DNA of 64,000 bases. Source: an uncultured Anaerolineaceae bacterium (GTDB lineage Bacteria > Chloroflexota > Limnocylindria > Limnocylindrales > CSP1-4). The DNA is taken from NCBI GenBank assembly GCA_964518505.1, contig CAZFGT010000004.1, positions 29,114 to 93,113 of the forward strand, in the 5' to 3' direction. This document shows, piece after piece, positions 10,164 to 56,668 of this stretch; positions within the stretch are counted from its first letter, which is position 1, and each line of letters starts with the position of its first letter. The notes below the pieces were generated by a model. It ran no database searches and had not been told where the DNA came from. It saw only the letters and a program-made list of their open reading frames with translations. Made by a program: the position numbers and the translations under genes.

Positions 10164-12272
10164 CTACGGGCAGTACTGCGCCGCCTTGCCGATCGCGGCG
10201 TACGGGCACGCCGCCGCGTTGATGAGGTAGAGGATCGCCGCGCGGTTGCGGGCGGTCTGTGGCGCGATGACGCTTTCCGGCGAGTAGACGGGGGCCGAGT
10301 CGGCGCCGGCCGAGGGGTACAGCTCGAACGTGAACGAGAAGATGTGTTCGACGCCGTACATCCAGTCGATCTCGTCCCCGTCGGTGATGTACAGGTCGCT
10401 GGACTGCTCCGGCTTGTAGCCGTTGGTCTTGGCCATCGCCTTGCCCATGGCTACGAACGTCGCGTGGTCGTCCGCCGTCATGTCCGAGGGGATGTCCGTC
10501 TTGGTGTAGCCGTAGGGCCACAGGATCAGCTCGCCGTCGGTGTGGAACGTGACGTGGGTCTTGATCTGCTGGACGCCGTTGACCACGCGGCTGAGGACGA
10601 AGTCGCGCACGGCCTGCGCCTCGGGCGTGCTGAAGGCGGTCTTGCCACGGTAGTTCCAGGCCGAGGCCGAGCTCGACGAGCCGCCGCAACAGCCCCAGTG
10701 GTACGAGTAGTTGCGGTTGATGTCCGTACCCACCGCTGAGGTGCCGGCATTGGGCTGGCGGTTCTTGCGCCACTCGTGGTACGGGCTTCCGGACAGGTCG
10801 TAGACCAGGCCGTCGGGGTTGACGGCGAAGATGATCCAGATACGGCGCGTGTCGACCAGGTTCTTCACCGTCGGGTCGGTCGAGTAGTCGTGCGTGAGCA
10901 TGTGCAGGGCGTACAGCGTCTGCTCCAGGGCCAGATGCTCCAGCGAGTGGTGGAGCCCGTCGATGAGGACCTCCGGCTTGGCCACCGGGTCGCTCACGTC
11001 GCCGCTGACCTCGGCCGCCCAGATGTCGCGACCCTGGTAGCTCTTGCCGATCGAGAAGACCTTCACCAGGTCGGGATACGCCGCCTGCACCGCGTCGATG
11101 TCGACCTCCATGCGCTGGTAGTTGTGGTACAGCGTGGCCCCGGAGGGGTAGTCGGGGCCAGGGGGTGGCACGACGAGCTGGCCTTCCGACCACGCGGCGA
11201 GCTCGTTGGCGACGGCATCGCGGACCGAGGACTGCCCGCCGATCGCCACCAGCGTCGACGGCCGGGCGGCGATGACCGCGTTCCGTGTCGCCACGACGGT
11301 CGGCGTCGCATCGGGGATCACGAGCAGCATGGGCGCGTCCAGCGAGGCCGCCAGGGGCCCTGCGGAGAGGGCGTCCGGGAAGTCCAGGCCGCTGGCCAGG
11401 ACGGCGGTCGTGGCGGTCGGCAGGAAGCGTGCGGCGACGGCTGCGGCGGTGCCGTAGCGGTCGGCGCCCGCCACACGCTCCACGGTCGGGCCAAGCTTCA
11501 CCACGGCGGTCGCCACGGCTGCGCTGACCGCCGCGGTGCTGCCCACGATCACCACGTGGGCCGGGGCCAGGTGGCTGATCTCGGCGGCTTCGCCGTCGGC
11601 GAGGCGGTCGGGTCGCGTCAGGAGCAGGGGGTCGCCTCCGACGCTGGCCGCCGGGGCTGATGACAGCGCGTCCGGGAAAGCCGTCCCCGCCGCCAGGAAG
11701 AGCGTGTCGACGGGCCCGTCCGGGAAGGCGTCCGCCACCAGGGCGATCGATGTGCCGTAGCGGTCGGACCCGGCGATCCGCTCCGGGGTGACGCCAGCGG
11801 CTGTGCCCGCGGCGGCGAGGACGGCGTCACTGACCGAGGTGGTCCCGCCGACCACGACGAGGCGCTGCGGTGCCAGCCGGGTCAGTTCCGCGGCCACCAC
11901 GTCGGGCAGGGTGTCGGCCGGCGTGAGCAGGATGACCCCGTGCTCGCGCGCGGCGACCGGCGCCGCCGAGGCGGCATCCGCGAAACCGGTGCCCGAGGCC
12001 AGGAGGACGACGGGTGCACCGCCATCCGGATAGAGCCGCTGCGAGACGGCCACCGCCGTGGCGTAGCGATCGGTGCCCGCCACCCGGTCGATGGTCACCT
12101 GGGTCGGCGGCGTGGCCGTGCGGCTCAGAGCGGCCAGCAGGGAGTCGGATGAGGCGGGCGGGGGAGACGCCTGGCTCGCTCTCGCCGAACCGCTCACGAC
12201 GAGCCCGCCCAGGAGCACCGGCAGCAGGACGAGGGCGTGCCACGAGCGGCGAGTGGGCCGTCGGTGAGGCAT
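10164..12272 (-). CDS. Secreted cell-wall-binding (3x CWB2 repeat) M14 zinc carboxypeptidase
   Basis: Signal peptide MPHRRPTRRSWHALVLLPVLLGGLVVSGSARA. Three repeats of the ...RIAGxDRYxTxxAVA...FPDxxxxL... CWB2 type. C-terminal M14 motifs are HSLE, NPDG, DINRN and HTDGELILWPYGY. Confidence 0.8.
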   Translation of the reverse strand: MPHRRPTRRSWHALVLLPVLLGGLVVSGSARASQASPPPASSDSLLAALSRTATPPTQVTIDRVAGTDRYATAVAVSQRLYPDGGAPVVLLASGTGFADAASAAPVAAREHGVILLTPADTLPDVVAAELTRLAPQRLVVVGGTTSVSDAVLAAAGTAAGVTPERIAGSDRYGTSIALVADAFPDGPVDTLFLAAGTAFPDALSSAPAASVGGDPLLLTRPDRLADGEAAEISHLAPAHVVIVGSTAAVSAAVATAVVKLGPTVERVAGADRYGTAAAVAARFLPTATTAVLASGLDFPDALSAGPLAASLDAPMLLVIPDATPTVVATRNAVIAARPSTLVAIGGQSSVRDAVANELAAWSEGQLVVPPPGPDYPSGATLYHNYQRMEVDIDAVQAAYPDLVKVFSIGKSYQGRDIWAAEVSGDVSDPVAKPEVLIDGLHHSLEHLALEQTLYALHMLTHDYSTDPTVKNLVDTRRIWIIFAVNPDGLVYDLSGSPYHEWRKNRQPNAGTSAVGTDINRNYSYHWGCCGGSSSSASAWNYRGKTAFSTPEAQAVRDFVLSRVVNGVQQIKTHVTFHTDGELILWPYGYTKTDIPSDMTADDHATFVAMGKAMAKTNGYKPEQSSDLYITDGDEIDWMYGVEHIFSFTFELYPSAGADSAPVYSPESVIAPQTARNRAAILYLINAAACPYAAIGKAAQYCP

Positions 12273-12309
12273 GGGCGACAGGGTGGCGGCCGCGGCCGTG
12301 CGGCGCAAC

Positions 12310-12933
12310 CTACCGGATGGGGCCATCCGCTCCGGCCCGATGGGCCCAGTCCGCTCGGCTGAGGCGGTAGAGCACGTGGCGCCGGTGGGGATCGTCCGGT
12401 GGCAGCGGCGCGTAGTCGAAGTCCTCGGCCGGGTCGTGGCGCATGCCCAGCCGCTCCATCACGCGCCTCGACCGCTCGTGCCCGACGGAGGTCAGGGACA
12501 CGATCTCCGGCAGGCCGACGGTCTCGAAGCCGAAGCGCAATGCCTCACGGGCCGCCTCCGTCGCGTATCCGTGACCCCACGCCGCCCGTGCGAATCGCCA
12601 GCCGACCTCCACGCACGGCGTGAAGGCGGCCTCGAAGGCCTGATAGGCGAGGCCCGTGAAGCCCAGGAAGGCGCCGTCAGCAGGCCGCTCCACGGCCCAC
12701 AGCCCATACCCGCGACGGCCGAACTGGGCCTCGATACGCTCGACGAAGCCGTCGCTGGCGGCACGGTCCAGGGGGTGCGAGAAGAACTCCATGACGTCGG
12801 GATCCGCGTTCAGGCGCGCGAACGGCTCCAGGTCAGCCTCGCGCCAGCGGCGCAGGATGAGACGCGGCGTCGTCAGGGTCGGCCCGGGCTCGGCCACGGG
12901 CCCGATGGCTCGCGGGGCAGCGTCGTCGCTCAT
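12310..12933 (-). CDS. GNAT family N-acetyltransferase (RimJ/RimL-like)
   Basis: 207 aa; TPRLILRRWREADLEPFARLNADPDVMEF... GNAT fold signature. Confidence 0.8.
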   Translation of the reverse strand: MSDDAAPRAIGPVAEPGPTLTTPRLILRRWREADLEPFARLNADPDVMEFFSHPLDRAASDGFVERIEAQFGRRGYGLWAVERPADGAFLGFTGLAYQAFEAAFTPCVEVGWRFARAAWGHGYATEAAREALRFGFETVGLPEIVSLTSVGHERSRRVMERLGMRHDPAEDFDYAPLPPDDPHRRHVLYRLSRADWAHRAGADGPIR

Positions 12934-13011: not shown

Positions 13012-14433
13012 TCAGGGTGTGGCCGTCCCGAACCAATCCGTGGCGACCGAGCCACTGCTGAACAGGACGCCATCGCGCATCAAGGTCGGCACCGGGTACT
13101 GGTCGGCCAGCATCGCGGGCGCGTCAGGGCCCGTGATGGTGAGCTTCGTCCAGTGGACCCCGTCCGAAGAGATGTAGTAGTCGTTCTGGCCGGCCGAGTC
13201 GCTCGCCGGGCTCGTGCCAGACCGACCGTATGCGAGCAGCCGATTCCCGTCGCTCGTGAAGGACCCGGCCGGTGAGCCGACGCCCTCGCCCTGCTGGATG
13301 GCCCCGAACGGGTCGGCTGTGCTGGGGGCCCAGGAGTGACCGTCGGCCGACCACCAGATCGCATCTGCGCCAGGCGTCATCCCGGGCGTGACTGACAGCG
13401 CCAGGAAGCCGTTCTGGCCGGCCCATACGTTGTTGAAGCCGAGGCCGCTGGTCGAAGGAGCCTTCGCCGCCGACCAGTGCTGCCCATCGGCCGAGTACCA
13501 CGCCAGCGGCTTGGCCGTCGGGGAGGCCTGGTCGCCGCTCCAGCCGACGGCCACGAAGCCGTTGGCATTGACGGCCAGATCGGTGATCTGGGCGACGGCG
13601 GGCCCCGGCAGCGAGATGCGCTGCCAGGTGACGCAGTCCGTGGTGACTAGCAGCGCGGTCCCGTTGGCCGCTCCGCCGCCGGTCTCCGTGTCCGCGACGG
13701 CGACCGAGCCGCGCGCCACGAGGGTCCCACGGCTGTCGTTGTGGAATGGCGCCTGGGTCCACGTCGTGCCGTCGCTGGAAGACCACAAGGTGACGGTGCC
13801 CACGCCTTCTGGTGTCGCGTGGTCCATCTCGACCAGGACCCGGTCGCCACACGCCGTGGCGCTGTTGAAGAGCGTGTCGCCGCTCGCGGCGTCGAAGCCG
13901 AACACCGAGAAGGGCAGTTCGGTCCAAGAGCGCCCGTCCGTCGACGTCCAACCCCGATTGAACCCGTTGGTCGTCTCGGCGCCGATGGCGATGTAGCCAC
14001 CGCTCCACGGCACCACGTTCGCCTGGATCGGCATCGGGGCCGTCAGGGCCGTGACGGTCAGGCCTGTCCACGCGCTGGTGGACACCGCCGGGACCGTCGG
14101 ACCGGGCGTCGGGGTCGGGGCTGGCGTCGCCGTCGGCACCGCGGATGAGCTGGATGTCGCGCTTGGCGTCGGTGACCCACCCGGCGTTACGGGCACGGGG
14201 GTCTGGGTGAACCGCAGGGTCAGCGCGATGATCGCCACGACGGCGACGACCGCCGCCACGGTGACCAGCTGGCGCGGCCACGCGAAGCGGGCCAGCCAGC
14301 CGCCGCCCGCCGACGCGGTGGCAGACGTCATGGAGCGGGTCACGCGGTCGTGGAGGGCGGCCGGAGCGGCCCCCGTGTCGTATCGGGCATGCAGGCGGCG
14401 ACTGAGTCGGGCCTCCAGTTCACGCTCGTCCAT
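13012..14433 (-). CDS. Anti-sigma factor, single-pass membrane protein with extracytoplasmic BNR/Asp-box repeat domain
   Basis: Cytoplasmic N-terminus, TM LVTVAAVVAVVAIIALTL, PT-rich linker, then five or more SxDGxxW(T/S) repeats (STDGRSWT, SSDGTTWT, SADGQHWS, SADGHSWA, SSDGVHWT). Its start overlaps the sigma gene stop by 14 nt. Confidence 0.7.
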   Translation of the reverse strand: MDERELEARLSRRLHARYDTGAAPAALHDRVTRSMTSATASAGGGWLARFAWPRQLVTVAAVVAVVAIIALTLRFTQTPVPVTPGGSPTPSATSSSSAVPTATPAPTPTPGPTVPAVSTSAWTGLTVTALTAPMPIQANVVPWSGGYIAIGAETTNGFNRGWTSTDGRSWTELPFSVFGFDAASGDTLFNSATACGDRVLVEMDHATPEGVGTVTLWSSSDGTTWTQAPFHNDSRGTLVARGSVAVADTETGGGAANGTALLVTTDCVTWQRISLPGPAVAQITDLAVNANGFVAVGWSGDQASPTAKPLAWYSADGQHWSAAKAPSTSGLGFNNVWAGQNGFLALSVTPGMTPGADAIWWSADGHSWAPSTADPFGAIQQGEGVGSPAGSFTSDGNRLLAYGRSGTSPASDSAGQNDYYISSDGVHWTKLTITGPDAPAMLADQYPVPTLMRDGVLFSSGSVATDWFGTATP

Positions 14434-14944
14434 CGGTCGCCTCCAGGGTCGTGCGCAGGGTTCGAAGCGCGTAATGCAGCCGCGACTTGACCGTGCCGAG
14501 CGGCAGGTCGAGGCGGTCCGCGATGTCCTCGAGGCTCATGTCGCGCCAGTAGCGCAGCAGGACCACGAGGCGGTGGTCGGGATCCAATCGATCGAAAGCC
14601 GCGTCAAGGTCGGGGTCGCCCGAGCGATCGGCCGGGTCGGGTGCCGTCCCCTCCCCCGTCCAGGCCGACTGCAGCGCGATCGCGCGGACGCGTTGACGCT
14701 GGCGCCGCCGCAGCCGATCACGGCACCCGTTGATGAGGACCCGCTCGAACCAGGCGTCGAACCGATCCTCGTCGCGCAGCGAGCCGCCTTTCTGCCACGC
14801 CGTCAGGCAGGCATCCTGGACGGCGTCCTCGGCTTCCCGCTCATCCGAAAGGATGGCTCGGGCCAGCCGGTAGCCCCGATCGACTTGTCCCTCGATACGC
14901 CGGGCCAGGGTGTCCCGCCGATCGACCGCCATCACGGTCTCCAC
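14420..14944 (-). CDS. ECF (sigma-70 family) RNA polymerase sigma factor
   Basis: 174 aa; region 2 ...AEDAVQDACLTAWQK... and region 4 ...LSLEDIADRLDLPLGTVKSRLHYAL.... Confidence 0.85.
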   Translation of the reverse strand: METVMAVDRRDTLARRIEGQVDRGYRLARAILSDEREAEDAVQDACLTAWQKGGSLRDEDRFDAWFERVLINGCRDRLRRRQRQRVRAIALQSAWTGEGTAPDPADRSGDPDLDAAFDRLDPDHRLVVLLRYWRDMSLEDIADRLDLPLGTVKSRLHYALRTLRTTLEATDGRA

Positions 14945-14998
14945 ATCTCCCTCGCGAGCCTGTCGTCTGCGGGCTCAGCGTCCGCAGTCACCCTATCC

Positions 14999-15026
14999 GA
15001 CGCGCGACCCGGTCGAAAAGGTTCAA
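14999..15026 (-). promoter_or_regulatory. Putative ECF-type autoregulatory promoter (TGAACC-N17-CGTC) upstream of sigma gene
   Basis: Read on the minus strand as TTGAACCttttcgaccgggtcgcgCGTC, about 50 nt upstream of the sigma start; resembles the AAC-N16/17-CGT ECF consensus. Confidence 0.3.
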
Positions 15027-15094
15027 CGATGCGTAGTGGCGTCGCGCCGATGCCCGCAGCCGGAGCCGGACGCTGATCTGGCATCGCCGCCCAA

Positions 15095-15268
15095 CGTGGT
15101 CAACCGTGACTGGGGGGCACGTTAGAGCCGCTTTCGGCCGCCGGCGGGGCCTGCCGAGGGTCCGGCTGCCCGGCCCTCGTGCTCAGGCTGGTCCATCCAC
15201 GGTCGGGTAGGCAGCCCTGGGACGCCCCGCAACTGCCTTACCGTGCCGGGGAGTCAGATCTGACCACG
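15095..15268 (+). repeat. Intergenic repeat element copy A (~174 bp) with imperfect 26-nt terminal inverted repeats, each containing a GTCA-N4-TGAC palindrome
   Basis: Left end CGTGGTCAACCGTGACTGGGGGGCACGTTAGAGCCG; right end GTGCCGGGGAGTCAGATCTGACCACG. A second copy lies at 40620..40804. Confidence 0.5.
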
Positions 15269-15337
15269 TATGCCACGGGCTCGGCGCGGCGAGGCTTCGG
15301 ACGCCACGGCAGCCGGCGCCTCAACCAGGAGCGTCGG

Positions 15338-39059: not shown

Positions 39060-40415
39060 CTATGATGCGGCCTCCTCGACAGGAGCCTTCTTGCGCGACG
39101 CGCGCTTGGGCTTGGCCTCGGCGGCGGGCCCCTCCGCCTCGACGACGGCTGCGGGTGCCTCGGCGGCCGTGGCCTTGGTGGTCGCGGCCTTGGCGCGGCT
39201 GGCGCGCTTGGGCTTGGCCTCAGCCGCGACGGTGTCGGGCGCAGCCTCGACGCTGGGGGCTTCGGCGGCGAGCGGCGTCTCAAGGGGCGTTTCGACCGGT
39301 GCGGCAGCGGCTTCGGGGGCCTCGGTGGCGGCAGCTGCCCGGGCCAGCGGCCGTGGGGGCGCATCGGCGGCGGGCACCTGGTCGGATCGGATATCGATGC
39401 GCCAGCCGGTCATCTTGGCCGCCAGGCGCGCGTTCTGGCCCTCCCGGCCGATGGCCAGCGAGAGCATCCGCTCGGGGACGGTGACGCTCGCGACGCGAGC
39501 CTCCTCGTCGATGTGGACGGCCACGACCTGGGCCGGGCTCAGGGCGTTGGCGACCAGCGTGGCCGGATCGTCCGACCACGGGATGATGTCGATCTTCTCG
39601 CCGCCCAGCTCGGCCACCACGGCCTGCACCCGGCCGCCACGCTGGCCGACCGTCGCGCCGACGGGGTCCAGGCCCTCCTGGCGGCTGGCCACGGCGACCT
39701 TGCTGCGGCTGCCGGCCTCACGGGCGATGGCCCGGATCTCGACCGCACCGCTGTGGATCTCCGGTACCTCGAGCTCGAAGAGGCGCCGCAGGAAGCCCTT
39801 GTGGGTGCGGCTGACGTAGATCTGGGGACCCTTGGTGGTGCGGCGGACCTCAAGCACGTAGGCCTTCACGTGCTGGCCGATGCGGTAGTGCTCCATGGTC
39901 GACTGCTCGGTCGTGGCCAGGATGGCGTCCACCCGCTCGGGCTCACGGCCCACGTCGAGGATGATGGCGCGCGGCTCGACGCGGCTGACCGTGCCGGTGA
40001 CGATCTCGCCTTCCATGGCCGCGTAACGCCCGAAGGTCTGCTCGCGCTCGACCTCGCGGAAGCGCTGCATGAAGACCTGGCGTGCGGTCTGGGCGTGGGT
40101 GCGCAGGAGCGTGTCGGCGTCCACCTGGGCAAACTCGACCCGGTCACCGACCACGGCGTCGGCCTTGAAGGCCCGCGCCTCGTCGACGCTGAACTGCGTC
40201 TCCGCGTCCTCGACCTCGTCGACCACCGTCTTGGCCCGGTAGACGCGGATCGCGCCCGTCTGGCCGTTGACCTCGACCCCGATGTTCTCGTTACCGGGCG
40301 CGGCGCGACGGTAGGCCGACTCGATGGCCTCTTCGACGGTGCGCACCAGGGCATCCTGTGAGATGCCCTTCTCGGCATTCAACTGGAGAAGGGCGCCGAC
40401 CAGATCGCGGCTCAC
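39060..40415 (-). CDS. nusA: Transcription termination/antitermination factor NusA
   Basis: GTG start 7 nt after AGGAGGAGG. N-terminal domain, S1, two KH; Ala/Lys-rich acidic C-tail. Confidence 0.9.
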   Translation of the reverse strand: MSRDLVGALLQLNAEKGISQDALVRTVEEAIESAYRRAAPGNENIGVEVNGQTGAIRVYRAKTVVDEVEDAETQFSVDEARAFKADAVVGDRVEFAQVDADTLLRTHAQTARQVFMQRFREVEREQTFGRYAAMEGEIVTGTVSRVEPRAIILDVGREPERVDAILATTEQSTMEHYRIGQHVKAYVLEVRRTTKGPQIYVSRTHKGFLRRLFELEVPEIHSGAVEIRAIAREAGSRSKVAVASRQEGLDPVGATVGQRGGRVQAVVAELGGEKIDIIPWSDDPATLVANALSPAQVVAVHIDEEARVASVTVPERMLSLAIGREGQNARLAAKMTGWRIDIRSDQVPAADAPPRPLARAAAATEAPEAAAAPVETPLETPLAAEAPSVEAAPDTVAAEAKPKRASRAKAATTKATAAEAPAAVVEAEGPAAEAKPKRASRKKAPVEEAAS

Positions 40416-40467
40416 GTTGCGCCTCCTCCTCTCAGTGCCTCGATGGCGGGGCGACCACTCAACAAAG

Positions 40468-40526
40468 AACGTGGGGGTCACCCACGTCTTGAGGCGGCCG
40501 GACCGATGCTCGGCGAAGTATAGCAG
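40468..40526 (-). promoter_or_regulatory. nusA promoter extended -10 (TGCTATACT) and leader hairpin ACGUGGG-GGUCA-CCCACGU
   Basis: Minus-strand GGGCTGCTATACTTCGCC ~100 nt upstream of the nusA GTG; 7-bp perfect hairpin ~50 nt upstream of the start. Confidence 0.35.
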
Positions 40527-40619
40527 CCCACGCTCCCACGCTCCCGGGCGCGATCGGCCGAGCTTGGGCTGAGCGGCCCTGCGCGGGGGCGTCTGAAAGC
40601 GGCCGCGGCGCCGCGAGAA

Positions 40620-40860
40620 CCTGGTCAGATGTGACCCGGGGGCACGTTAGGGCCGGTGTTCGACGTGCGGGCGGGCACCTTGGGCGCCGCTCGGGCTCTG
40701 GTCGTTGCGTGGCGGCGCTCGTCCGACGCCCGGCCACGCCGCTGACCGGCCGCCCGAGGCGCTGCGAACCGCCCCAACGTGCCCGGGAGTCAGGTTTGAC
40801 CAGGTCCCGGCCGTGAGCCGTCGCCGCGACCGGCTCGCGCCCCGAATGTGGTCACCGACC
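40620..40860 (+). repeat. Intergenic repeat element copy B (core 40620..40804, plus partial third end 40845..40860)
   Basis: Left end CCTGGTCAGATGTGACCCGGGGGCACGTTAGGGCCG. Right end GTGCCCGGGAGTCAGGTTTGACCAGG. Extra AATGTGGTCACCGACC matches the sequence preceding copy A. The 29-nt left-end core is ~90% identical between copies. Confidence 0.5.
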
Positions 40861-41099
40861 AATCCGGGTGGTACTGGAGCGACTCCGCGCCGCTCGTGCG
40901 GCTCTCTTGCGGTTTCCGGTGGCTCGGCTTGGTTTGTGCGGCCGCACGGAGGCGGCCCCCATGACCGTCTCCGAGGCCGCGCAGAAGCGTGACACCTGCG
41001 CCAATACCACCCCGGTTGGTGGATGGACAGGTTCGCGCCCGCGGCCGGACGCGGCGCGGCCCGGACGAAGAGGCCCGGCGCCGGCCCCCGGCCCGACCC

Positions 41100-42560
41100 C
41101 TAGTAGGCTCGGGCGAAGAGCACCCGGCGCGCGGAGGGTCGGCCGTCGACGAGGCACGTGCCGGCCTCGTCGGGCGAGTCGAAGGGGATGACGCGGATGG
41201 TGGCGCCGGTCTCATCGCTGACGCGCCGCTCGCAGGCGGCATCGCCGCACCATGGCGCCATGGCGAAACCGCCCTCCCCTTCCATGAGCGCCTTGAGGTC
41301 GTCGAGCGTGTCGAGCCGGTGGGTGTTGGCCTCGCGGAAGTCGAGCGCCCGCTGGAACAGGGCTTGCTGGTAGGCGGCCAGGCGCCCCGGCAGGTCGGCG
41401 GCCAGCGCATCCAGGGCGATCGGCTCCTTGGCCCGGTCCACCCGGCGTACCAGGACACCCTGCCCGGCGGCCACGTCGCGCGGCCCCACTTCCAGGCGGT
41501 AGGGCACGCCGCGCAGCTCCCAGTGGTTGTACTTGAAACCGGGCGACTCTTCGCGGCGGTCGACCTTGACGCGCAGCGGCCCGGAGGCGGTCGTGACGTC
41601 CTTGAGCGCGGCCTCCAGCGGCCCGAGTGCGGCCTCCACCGCGGAGCGGTCATCCTCCGAGCGGAAGATGGGCACGATCGCGACCTGGGTGGGCGCCACG
41701 TTGGGCGGCAGCACGAGCCCCGAGTCGTCGCCGTGGGCCATGATCGTCGCGCCGACCATGCGCGTGGAGAAGCCCCACGACGTGCCCCAGGGGTGCTTGC
41801 GCACGTTGTCGCGGTCCAGGTACTCGATCCCGGCCGAGCGGGCGAAGTTCTGGCCGAGCATGTGGCTGGTGCCGGCCTGGAGCGCCTTCCGGTCGCGCAT
41901 CATCGCTTCGATGGAATCGCTGTAGACGGCCCCGGGAAACTTCTCGCCCTCGCTCTTGCGGCCCTTGATGACGGGGATCGCCAGCCAGTCCTCGGAGACC
42001 TGCCGGTAGGCCTCCAGGCCGGTCGCCACCTCGGCCGCCGCCTCCTCTTCCGTGGCGTGGAAGGTGTGGGCCTCCTGCCACAGGAACTCGGCCGTGCGCA
42101 GGAAGAGCCGCGTACGCAGCTCCCAGCGCACGACGTTGTTCCACAGGTTCATCAGCACGGGCAGGTCGCGATAGGACTGGATCCAGTCCTTGACCGAGTC
42201 GGCGATGATCGCCTCGCTGGTCGGCCGCACGGCCAGCCACTCGGTCAGCGGCTCACCGCCGGCGTGGGTGACCCAGGCCACCTGGGGGTTGAAGCCCTCG
42301 ACGTGCTCGGCCTCCTTCTCCAGGAGCGAGCGCGGCACGAAGAGCGGGAAGTAGACGTTCTCGTGGCCCGTCGCCTTGATGTGACGGTCCAGCTCGTCGC
42401 GCATCGACTCCCAGATGGCGAAGCCGTACGGCCGGATGATCATGCAGCCGCGCACCGGCGAGTAGTCGGCCAGCTGGCCCTTCAGGACGACGTCGTTGTA
42501 CCAGCCGGGGAAGTCCTCCGACTGGCGCGTGATGCTGCTGACGAAGCCGGCCTTGGCCAT
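41100..42560 (-). CDS. proS: Proline--tRNA ligase, archaeal/eukaryote-like type (no INS editing domain, C-terminal Zn-binding domain)
   Basis: 486 aa from the ATG with GGAGGA RBS; class II motifs ...IRPYGFAIWE..., ...FRDEL..., C-terminal ...CGDAACERRV.... Confidence 0.9.
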   Translation of the reverse strand: MAKAGFVSSITRQSEDFPGWYNDVVLKGQLADYSPVRGCMIIRPYGFAIWESMRDELDRHIKATGHENVYFPLFVPRSLLEKEAEHVEGFNPQVAWVTHAGGEPLTEWLAVRPTSEAIIADSVKDWIQSYRDLPVLMNLWNNVVRWELRTRLFLRTAEFLWQEAHTFHATEEEAAAEVATGLEAYRQVSEDWLAIPVIKGRKSEGEKFPGAVYSDSIEAMMRDRKALQAGTSHMLGQNFARSAGIEYLDRDNVRKHPWGTSWGFSTRMVGATIMAHGDDSGLVLPPNVAPTQVAIVPIFRSEDDRSAVEAALGPLEAALKDVTTASGPLRVKVDRREESPGFKYNHWELRGVPYRLEVGPRDVAAGQGVLVRRVDRAKEPIALDALAADLPGRLAAYQQALFQRALDFREANTHRLDTLDDLKALMEGEGGFAMAPWCGDAACERRVSDETGATIRVIPFDSPDEAGTCLVDGRPSARRVLFARAY

Positions 42561-42637
42561 GGTTGAGCGAGGTCCTCCGAATGGGGCGGAGCGGCTATGG
42601 TACCGAAGCGACACCATCGACACGAGGAGACCGGCCC

Positions 42638-43030: not shown

Positions 43031-44304
<1,274 letters not shown>

Positions 44305-44305
<1 letters not shown>

Positions 44306-45495
44306 CAGCCGCCGCCCGGCCGGGTGATGTCGAAGTAGCTGATCCACAGGATGAAGGCGATGAGCAGCCCGAACCCGACCAGGTAGGTGGCCGCCTCCGC
44401 CCTCGTGCTGAGGCGCGGCCCGACGACCTTCTTGATCACACCGACCAGGACCCGACCGCCGTCCAACGGCGGAATCGGCAGGGTATTGATGACGGCCAGG
44501 TTGGCCGAGAGGAGCGCGACCAGGTAGACCAGGAAGATCGGCGGGTTCTCCGTGCGGACCTGGCCCACGATGCCGACGATGCCGATCGGACCGGCGACCT
44601 GCGGGCTGGCCAGGTTGCCGATCAGACCGCCGACGGCCGTGATGACCGTCGTCGCTGCCTCCACGGTCCGCTGGGCGCCGAGGCTCAGAGCGTCAGTCAG
44701 GCTGCGGCTGATGGGCGGGCCGGCGTCATACCTCCAACCCACGATCCCGAGCGCGCCCTGCCCGGTGGTCTTGCCATCGACGAGCGGTGCGTTGTTGGCG
44801 ACGTCTGCGGTGTTGAGCAGCACGTTCACGTCCTGTGTGGTGCCGTCGGCGTGGAGCAGGGAGAGCGTGACCTGCTGGCCAGAGTGCGCCTTGATGTAGA
44901 GGATGCCGGCGTTGGGCTCACCGCTAGGACCCGCGTCGAACCAGGCGAACTGATGGCCGTCGATGGCCGTGATCAGGTCGCCGGAGTCGTCGTAGATCGG
45001 CGCGTCGGCCGTCCCTCCGACTTTCGCGCTGGGTCGCAGACCGGCGGCGGCAGCAGGCGCGACGTGCCCGCTGGTGGTCGCCGGAGCGAGGCCGTCGAGA
45101 CGGATGTCGACCGATGGGTCGGCGAAGCCGGCGATGAAGACGAAGATCACGAACGCCAGCAGCAGGTTCATGGCCACGCCGGCCAGCAGGATGATCGTGC
45201 GCACCTTGAGGGGCTTGTGGCTGAAGCTCCGCGGGTCCTCGGCACGGTCGCCGTCCTCGCCCTCCAGCCGCACGAAGCCGCCGATGGGGAGCCAGTTGAG
45301 CGTGTAGGCCGTCTCGGGGCCCTGGTGGTAGGTGAGCGCCCGCGGCGGCAGCCCGATGCCGAACTCATGCACCCGCACGCCGGCCAGGCGGGCCATCACG
45401 AAATGGCCGAACTCGTGGATCACCACGAGCGCCACCAGGATGGCCAGGACCAGCACGATGTTGATGAGGCTGTTGGCGATGTTGCTGAGGTCCAT
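44305..45495 (-). CDS. rseP: RIP metalloprotease RseP (site-2 protease, M50)
   Basis: [14 protein letters not shown] zinc motif, PDZ region, LDGG motif. Confidence 0.85.
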
Positions 45496-53244: not shown

Positions 53245-53253
53245 AGTATAGCA
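53245..53253 (-). promoter_or_regulatory. rplS promoter extended -10 (TGCTATACT)
   Basis: Minus-strand cccTTGCTATACTCGCC 48 nt upstream of the rplS ATG. Confidence 0.3.
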
Positions 53254-56032: not shown

Positions 56033-56668
56033 TCACTCCTCCGGTGGAGCAGGCTCGGCTGAAGCCTCTGGCCTAACCTCGGGCGCTGCCTCCGGGGGCG
56101 TTTCGGCGGGGCGGATCGCGGGCCGGCCGAGCCGGGATGAGCGTCGGCCGCGCGGCCGCCGGACCCGCAGCGGGCCCAGGTCCAGCGCGTCGGGATCCAC
56201 GACGATGCGCCCGTCGCGCGGCGCGAACTCGACGACGACCGCGCGGACGAGCGGCACGAGGACCTCGCCGCGGGGGCCGCCCGTCACGACCAGGACCTCG
56301 CTGCCACCGGTGCGGAAGACGTCGGCGGCGGTGCCCAGTACCTCCCCGTCGGTGGCCGTCACGGTGGCCCCCGGCAGCTCGTGCCAGTAGACGCTGCCGT
56401 CGGGCAGTGTGGCAGGATCGCCCTCCGCCTCCAGGTAGCGGCCGACGAGCCCTTCGACCGACTCCCGGCGCGTCAGGCGGGCGAAGCGCACGAGGAGACC
56501 GGGCTTGTCGGCCTGGCTCCACATGACCGTCAGGCGGCGCGCCTCGCCCTCCAGGAGCAGGACGCTGCCCGGCGCGAAGCGCGCCTCGTCATCGGTCAGG
56601 ACCTCCACCCGGACGGCACCCCCCAGGCCGTGCACCCCCCGGATGCGGCCGACCGCGAGCCGCGCCAC
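56033..56668 (-). CDS. rimM: Ribosome maturation factor RimM
   Basis: LAVGRIRGVHGLGGAVRVEVLTDDEARF... N-terminal RimM barrel, PRC-like middle, extended P/E-rich tail. Confidence 0.85.
   Translation of the reverse strand: MARLAVGRIRGVHGLGGAVRVEVLTDDEARFAPGSVLLLEGEARRLTVMWSQADKPGLLVRFARLTRRESVEGLVGRYLEAEGDPATLPDGSVYWHELPGATVTATDGEVLGTAADVFRTGGSEVLVVTGGPRGEVLVPLVRAVVVEFAPRDGRIVVDPDALDLGPLRVRRPRGRRSSRLGRPAIRPAETPPEAAPEVRPEASAEPAPPEE

Follow-up and report, generated by a model that had tools for sequence, protein, structure and literature searches.

The locus lies within a 64-kb stretch of DNA, the whole of which was analyzed and is referred to as the window. On the minus strand of the window, the genes follow each other in the order ispG, proS, spacer, nusA, ylxR, infB, rbfA, nrnA-like DHH phosphoesterase gene, truB, and ribF (Table 1). 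The identical 451-aa NusA is found on 8 metagenome contigs from different samples, 6 of which were fetched. In the 473-aa ORF, Pfam domain NusA_N begins at residue 26, equivalent to residue 4 when counted from the start at 40415. The C-terminal tail of NusA (∼90 residues, ∼360–451; window 39060–39330) is rich in Ala, Pro, Glu, and Lys and carries nearly all differences to close relatives, the first 360 residues being ∼99% identical and the tail being rearranged. ProS is of the archaeal/eukaryote-like type; it has a ProRS-C_1 domain and lacks the bacterial editing insertion. Relatives with an intact proS (L007, L008, L009, and L040) have this type as well, and proS is fragmented in L041 and L042. 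For the start of proS, gene callers on identical contigs (e.g. L001) choose a 486-aa version.

Table 1. Positions of genes, signals, and palindromic elements in the window
Feature	Position	Strand	Remarks
ispG	43031–44347	−	upstream of proS
proS	41100–42623	−	Pfam tRNA-synt_2b, HGTP_anticodon, ProRS-C_1; stop codon 41100–41102
proS–nusA spacer	40416–41099	−	684 nt, non-coding
C-type palindromic element	40843–41034	−	∼191 bp; arms 40843–40880 and 41005–41034; center near 40936–40951
B-type element (copy B)	40617–40807	−	191 bp including a 5-nt outer extension; arms 40617–40654 and 40771–40807; center degenerate, near 40702–40724; orthologs in L007 and L023
Extended −10 element TGCTATACT, presumed nusA promoter	40517–40525	−	reverse complement on the forward strand
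Leader block (CGGCCGCC, hairpin, U-rich tract)	40458–40500	−	invariant in 8 lineages
Hairpin ACGUGGG-UGACC-CCCACGU	40469–40487	−	19 nt; U-rich tract 40458–40468
Shine–Dalgarno region GAGAGGAGGAGG	40422–40433	−	upstream of the nusA GTG
nusA	39060–40415	−	451 aa; GTG start 40413–40415
B-type element (copy A)	15092–15271	−	180 bp; nhmmer 110 bits; orthologs in L030 and L028

The proS–nusA spacer and the question of rimP

The distance between proS and nusA is as unusual as the first-pass annotation had put it (∼680 bp), measured from the proS stop codon to the nusA GTG (Table 1). In the sense of nusA, the proS stop is followed first by 65 nt and a C-type element, then by 35 nt and a B-type element, and finally by 91 nt that lead up to the −10 element of the presumed nusA promoter. 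The spacer is long because of these two adjacent and related elements, which together make up 382 nt. No codon-position GC pattern was detected in the spacer (40540–41080), and Pfam gave no match for its 3 ORFs at E ≤ 0.1. The whole spacer is 99.4–100% identical in 4 further independent metagenome assemblies (a fifth, L005, spans only part of it), which excludes a sequencing artifact or a hidden frameshifted gene. Two short-read contigs with this nusA (L002 and L005) have their start in the spacer, in one case within the C-type element and in the other 26 nt after the B-type element, which suggests that the repeats break assemblies.

In bacteria, the usual operon is rimP–nusA–infB (PMC2965389). 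The spacer contains no RimP ORF, and the earlier annotation had linked this gap to the repeat: rimP would normally precede nusA in the relatives of this organism, and the repeat would have replaced it or inserted beside it. The underlying observation is correct. Coding periodicity, Pfam, motif, and tblastn all fail to indicate a RimP-like ORF in the gap, the same holds for the 4 assemblies, and with a spacer this invariant, no unannotated rimP was found to be concealed by sequencing errors. Across the 64-kb window, a six-frame search found no RimP signature (SSPG-type motif), tblastn with an approximate Escherichia coli RimP query returned noise only (best E = 1.8, on the wrong strand), and Pfam placed a RimP domain in none of the 20 small coding-like ORFs. 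RimM was found in the window at 56036–56668.

However, a displacement of rimP by the repeat is highly improbable in view of the related genomes. The assumed kinship to actinobacteria was mistaken; wherever the source of a NusA homologue is named, it is a Candidatus Limnocylindrales or Chloroflexota MAG, and none is actinobacterial. We compared the nusA locus of the window with those of 7 further lineages with NusA identities of 66–90%. The gene proS lies upstream of nusA in L007 (NusA 90% identical), L008 (83%), L042 (71%), L041 (69%), and L040 (66%). In L009 (75%), an ABC transporter is inserted after proS, and in L023 (90% for the entire protein, ∼99% for residues 1–360), the upstream region is cut by the locus edge, with copy B present. 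None of the 7 fetched lineages (0/7) has rimP upstream of nusA, and 5 of the 7 are also without the repeat. No RimP pseudogene signal was found in any frame. With rimP missing here from seven lineages, five of them repeat-free, the repeat displaced nothing, neither by replacing rimP nor by inserting next to it. The missing rimP at nusA is, as far as can be read from these loci, the state of the whole class and independent of the repeat, which removes a false lead. The ancestral order in the class was probably ispG–proS–nusA–ylxR–infB, without rimP at this locus.

The same loci were informative on the length of the spacer, a comparison that the first-pass annotation had suggested. Without the element, the spacers span only 107–351 nt (126 nt in L008, 132 nt in L009, 107 nt in L042, and 351 nt in L040; L041 has a short spacer in a frameshifted assembly), so that the repeats explain the extra length in the window. 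L007 has a long spacer with both elements and aligns with 656 nt of the window spacer at 77% identity, and in L023, copy B is found 132 nt ahead of the nusA ORF. L008, L009, and L040–L042 align only with window 40455–40526 and have no B or C ends. At the nusA locus, the repeat is limited to the three closest genomes (window, L007, and L023), and both elements were presumably already present in the common ancestor of the window organism and these two close relatives. The insertion in L009/L010 (4154–5868), seen in one Limnocylindria lineage, is a two-gene ABC transporter; nusA is still immediately preceded by its conserved promoter and leader block despite this insertion.

Putative promoter and leader signals of nusA

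Four signals upstream of nusA are invariant base for base in 8 lineages, down to a NusA identity of 66%: the TATACT of the extended −10 element, the CGGCCGCC box, the hairpin, and the start of the U-tract. No match to a −35 element was found for the nusA promoter. The extended −10 element and the 7-bp hairpin had been recognized before at 40518..40526 and 40468..40486; both exist and are conserved across the class, but each lies one base off these coordinates (Table 1). The hairpin, located 52 nt ahead of the nusA start, runs into UCUUUGUU and is the only terminator-like site in 40300–41200. Its A/U-rich stem extension shows compensatory changes (AAG/CUU versus GAA/UUC). The motif GGTCA in the hairpin loop, which had been tied to the repeat, is unrelated to it; the hairpin is identical in repeat-free genomes, and the window contains 276 occurrences of GGTCA/TGACC. 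Judging from this conservation, promoter and hairpin are ancestral features upstream of nusA. A second exact reverse-complement copy of TGCTATACT is located at 53245–53253. It falls into a gap ahead of the RNase HII gene region and may likewise act as a strong promoter.

The leader block was compared with the rimP-leader, called the most widespread attenuator (Naville & Gautheret 2010, PMC2965389). In the rimP-leader, a hairpin whose 5′ arm is rich in G and whose 3′ arm is rich in C is followed by a T stretch and lies 4–130 nt before the operon, and NusA is its proposed effector (PMC2965389). Similar to the rimP-leader, the block upstream of nusA is highly conserved in sequence and combines G-rich and C-rich hairpin arms with a U stretch before the first gene of a nusA–infB operon. 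In contrast to the rimP-leader, this first gene is nusA and not rimP, and the top of the stem reads GGG-u...c-CCC instead of GGGc...gCCC. Rfam returned no relevant match at E ≤ 10 over 40380–41130, and membership in the rimP-leader is assigned from the described features only. By these features, the leader block fits a terminator/attenuator of the rimP-leader type. Such a terminator kept base for base before nusA, in a lineage without rimP at the locus, is in line with the proposed action of NusA rather than RimP on the leader. The leader signals probably mediate autoregulation by NusA.

Both elements of the spacer occupy an apparently harmless position upstream of these signals. Because they lie upstream of the promoter, we expect little effect on nusA beyond its separation from proS. 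Any read-through RNA is predicted to carry a very stable arm stem (−122 kcal/mol).

A family of palindromic elements

A generic repeat finder run on the whole window missed the family because of its diverged interior, and the family was found by targeted blastn. Copies A and B are alike only at their ends, which are mutual inverted repeats. All 4 ends fit the pattern TGGTCANNNNTGACNNNNSGGCAC, for which 0.15 matches are expected by chance. Copy B had already been noticed in the proS–nusA gap, and its match with copy A holds at both ends; its extent is now that given in Table 1. The sense polarity of copy B (TCC-arm first) runs with nusA, and nhmmer scores 97 bits on the minus strand versus 66 bits on the plus strand.

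The sequence AATGTGGTCACCGACC is confirmed at 40845–40860, where the first-pass annotation had seen an extra partial module matching the sequence immediately left of copy A. The latter match was not borne out; the module resembles the outermost portion of the arm of the repeat itself and is the nusA-proximal terminal arm of the C-type element. The hint at tandem or longer units was right in that a further unit exists, but this unit is an adjacent second, related element. The arms of the C-type element at nusA are mutual inverted repeats, nhmmer scores the element at E = 5.8e-40, and an ortholog with conserved arms is present in L007.

Copy A has an ABC exporter gene on one side and the promoter region of a gene for an ECF sigma factor on the other, and its orthologs in L030 and L028 adjoin the same ABC exporter and ECF sigma factor (96% identical). 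Upstream of the ECF sigma factor gene (14420–14944), a block of GTTGAACC-N17-CGTC (window 14993–15027, minus strand) is near-identical in the window, L030, and L028, with a diverged surrounding spacer, and looks like an autoregulated promoter of the ECF type.

Members of the family measure 158–191 bp and consist of terminal inverted repeats of ∼35–43 bp, a 10-bp central motif, and a free interior. From the outer to the inner side, the consensus of the B-type arm is CRAYS-TGGTCA-GATC-TGAC-TCCG-GGGCACGTTAGRGC. In the other B-type arm, TGGG replaces TCCG, and this conserved two-base mismatch gives the element a polarity; the profile HMM scores the sense strand 20–60 bits above the antisense strand. 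Each arm holds a palindrome GTCA-N4-TGAC (4–5 bp), with a conserved GTTAG 13 nt further in, and the conserved motif at the center is CTGAGC(G/A)(T/C)G(A/G). The C-type ends (AACCTGTCCAGATACCAAyCCGGGTGGTA...) are related to the B-type ends, the centers are similar, and the B and C profiles cross-match weakly. C-type ends were found beside B-type elements in L017, L018, L022, L026, L028, L030, and L034.

To survey the distribution, a strict 17-base end pattern, which recognizes about 60% of the known ends, was scanned in one genome per species (185,579 species). It located 20 loci, 16 of them in three Limnocylindrales-type MAGs and 1 on a contig orthologous to these; the remaining 3 are unrelated and have no partner end. 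A scan of JGI metagenomes added eight paired copies. The partner end is always 158–181 bp away, except in one truncated copy (L027). With the strict pattern, there are at least 5–8 loci per MAG. Sets of orthologous copies include copy A/L030/L028, copy B/L007/L023, and L016/L029/L025. L025 (DASPUH010000074.1) was binned as Candidatus Sulfotelmatobacter, and its B-type element with 60-nt flanks is 95–100% identical to two JGI contigs (L031 and L039). The flanks of all three are orthologous to loci of Limnocylindrales-type MAGs (L016 and L029), and by its sequence the L025 contig is probably mis-binned. Another metagenome contig of 2.2 kb (L038) carries two B-type elements (69–227 and 1225–1383) ∼1 kb apart.

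All copies are intergenic, and there is no coding signal in the elements. Their neighbors are genes of the housekeeping kind, including those for NusA, an ECF sigma factor, ABC and MFS transporters, UvrD, lysine aminomutase, dioxygenases, an amidohydrolase, and adenylate cyclase. A common regulon was rejected, as these neighbors are unrelated in function, and so was a parS-like regional clustering, with five copies spread over 1.2 Mb of one contig. No tRNA or tmRNA was found, and Rfam returned nothing relevant for the elements, at the gathering score or at E ≤ 10. The arm has no blastn match among 72,556 plasmids, so that a likeness to plasmid-borne IS/Tn ends was not detected. A literature search found no published account of inverted repeats in Limnocylindria. 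The repeat family is restricted to one clade, in an uncultured soil Chloroflexota class without genetics, and has no match in Rfam, the plasmid collection searched, or the papers returned by the literature search.

Conservation pattern and possible nature of the elements

In orthologous pairs (identical contigs L025, L031, and L039 left out), the arms are 68–93% identical, in contrast to 57–81% for the interior. For scale, unrelated GC-rich sequence yields 51–60% in the same test, and third codon positions of nusA are 85–88% identical between these genomes. The arms of non-orthologous copies are as alike as those of orthologous copies. The higher identity of the arms in orthologs, together with their equal likeness between non-orthologs, indicates that arms and center are kept, by selection or homogenization, while the interior drifts.

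Element lengths are trimodal (158–159, 168–170, and 178–181 bp, with none in between); for a period of 10.5, Rayleigh R is 0.91. The 5′ arm is separated from the center by about 42, 50–53, or 61–64 nt, and the center from the 3′ arm by about 40, 50–51, or 61–62 nt. Left and right spacers vary independently, in at least five combinations. Neither A/T periodicity nor internal tandem units were detected as a source of the 10.5-nt steps. The pattern is best explained by a common helical register of arms and center on B-form DNA: because the spacers change only in steps of ∼10.5 bp, arms and center would lie on one face of the helix. From at least 4 independent indels, all of 10–11 nt, we infer that such a register is required and that a protein complex would recognize the elements as double-stranded DNA. 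In part, the length steps could also reflect descent from a few founder variants. The spacing rule of ∼10.5 bp on both sides of the center provides a handle for finding the binding protein.

Alternatively, the elements could act as RNA, their ∼30–40-bp stem serving in a read-through or dedicated transcript as a signal for processing, stability, or termination, or each element could be a small RNA gene. Copy B does fold at −122 to −131 kcal/mol (z = −4 to −5), and at most co-directional loci the polarity of the element runs with the flanking genes. In the arm pairing on the sense strand, G-U pairs (81) mildly exceed A-C pairs (57), although the copies are not independent. However, the structure of copy A is not significant (z = −1.0 and −1.5), and the interiors fold like dinucleotide shuffles on both strands (mean z −0.3). 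Folding of the alignment recovered nothing beyond the arm stem; the stem pairs are invariant, and the covariation term was −0.05. A long hairpin or a structured interior was rejected on these grounds. About 20% of the arm positions are non-complementary, so that the arms are conserved as sequence and not as pairs. The stem is not followed by a U tract, there is no Rfam match, and steps of 10.5 nt suit B-DNA and not a hairpin. A function as RNA is therefore improbable.

In their overall build, the elements resemble known mobile repeats. They are short and non-coding, have terminal inverted repeats, occur in dispersed copies, and are present or absent at orthologous sites, as is the case for MITEs. 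The C-type element at the ABC/ECF locus is found in L028 and L030 and is absent there in the window, and B- and C-type elements are both absent at nusA in L008, L009, and L040–L042. C-type elements lie 27–45 nt from B-type elements at 7–8 of about 18 independent loci. The small size and long inverted ends of the elements, their intergenic dispersal within one clade, the clustering of related units, and gain and loss at orthologous sites together point to non-autonomous repeat elements of bacteria. We consider it probable, with moderate confidence, that the elements upstream of nusA are mobile DNA of a MITE- or REPIN-like kind, with rimP ancestrally absent at the locus and the promoter and leader ancestral. 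They would be non-autonomous and moved by a protein supplied in trans, presumably a transposase or recombinase, that recognizes double-stranded DNA and needs both arms and the center on the same helix face.

Several observations count against mobility. No direct repeat of 2–9 nt that would represent a target-site duplication was found at offsets 0–8 in 18 copies; old duplications may have decayed since insertion. The ∼0.4 Mb of fetched sequence contains no transposase-bearing copy, no transposase or recombinase among the neighboring genes, and no long element with the same ends (29 pattern-derived loci). In addition, the copy number is low, and most copies reside at orthologous sites with arms conserved in place. 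This orthologous fixation with conserved arms fits a site maintained by the host equally well as a mobile element.

Accordingly, B- and C-type elements may not be mobile at all, and may be host-maintained DNA sites of two inverted protein-binding arms and a central site in helical register, which could have architectural or regulatory roles or could be invertible-segment targets of one genome-wide site-specific recombinase. Conservation of arms and center in place with a drifting interior, the spacing steps of 10.5 bp on both sides of the center, the palindrome in each arm, the occurrence at orthologous loci in several species, and the lack of both target duplications and a transposase in the sequences searched all agree with this explanation. 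However, the neighboring genes share no function, and there is no promoter-like site within the element. The orientation is the same in the window, 4 assemblies, and 4 orthologous sets, with no inversion seen. Moreover, the C-type element is present or absent at one and the same orthologous locus, and the clustering of B- and C-type elements is typical of mutually targeting repeats. On balance, host-maintained sites appear rather unlikely.

The segments controlled by one global invertase in the Mpi regulon of Bacteroides fragilis are invertible promoters. Similar to such invertons, the elements are segments of ∼170 bp with shared inverted repeats at several intergenic loci per genome; in contrast to them, no internal promoter, orientation polymorphism, or invertase was seen in the assembled sequences.

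Returning to mobile elements, the closest structural parallels are BIME-1/RIP of E. coli and the REPINs of Pseudomonas, which consist of an inverted pair of units and a linker (PMC3333891; bioRxiv 10.1101/2024.10.14.618302). A REP unit is an imperfect palindrome of 20–40 nt with a conserved GTAG at its foot, and the conserved linker of BIME-1 carries an IHF site (PMC3333891). As in REP doublets, two conserved inverted units flank a less conserved linker with a conserved central motif, the copies are exclusively intergenic, lack target duplications, and have related units clustered, and they persist vertically at orthologous sites with a conserved mismatch within the pairing. The arms seem to depart from REP units in that they contain only the 4–5-bp palindrome with GTTAG 13 nt inward and not a palindrome of 20–40 nt that adjoins GTAG. 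At 158–191 bp, the elements are longer than REP/REPIN sequences, and their at least 5–8 copies per genome (strict pattern) contrast with hundreds and stay below the threshold of >100 copies. No RAYT gene was seen in the 8-kb blocks fetched around the copies.

Correia/NEMIS elements are MITEs with long terminal repeats. TIMEs derived from Tn3 possess inverted repeats of 38–40 bp, generate duplications of 5–6 bp, and conserve their inverted repeats and size while the core diverges (PMC4133298). Our elements share with TIMEs and Correia/NEMIS a short, non-coding sequence, terminal inverted repeats of ∼38–40 bp, and a presumed mobilization in trans, and with the Tn3-derived TIMEs also the conservation of inverted repeats and element size around a diverging core with short conserved stretches. 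Unlike TIMEs, they lack a target duplication of 5–6 bp and a conserved GGGG at the outer tip, the fetched sequence revealed no parent transposon, and the copies are mostly fixed at orthologous sites. The inner CACGTTAG of the arm is the only part that resembles the Tn3 inverted repeat. With few copies per genome, no target duplications, and arms that persist in place and stay conserved, the elements are closer to REP doublets than to a classical cut-and-paste MITE.

A further step would be to regard B- and C-type elements as a vertically inherited DNA architecture of three sites, the two arms and the center spaced by whole helical turns, that is maintained by selection and served by a dedicated protein of the clade, instead of decaying transposon relics. 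This is an unlikely reading at present. If true, the elements would represent a domesticated replicator system similar to REPIN/RAYT in a new phylum and with a new enzyme or, alternatively, the sites at which a recombinase or architectural protein acts throughout the genome.

Elsewhere in the window, at 11449–12102, three direct repeats of 45 nt are spaced 303–306 nt apart inside an ORF of 720 aa (10164–12326). By its sequence, this arrangement indicates that the ORF encodes a protein with internal repeats of ∼100 residues.
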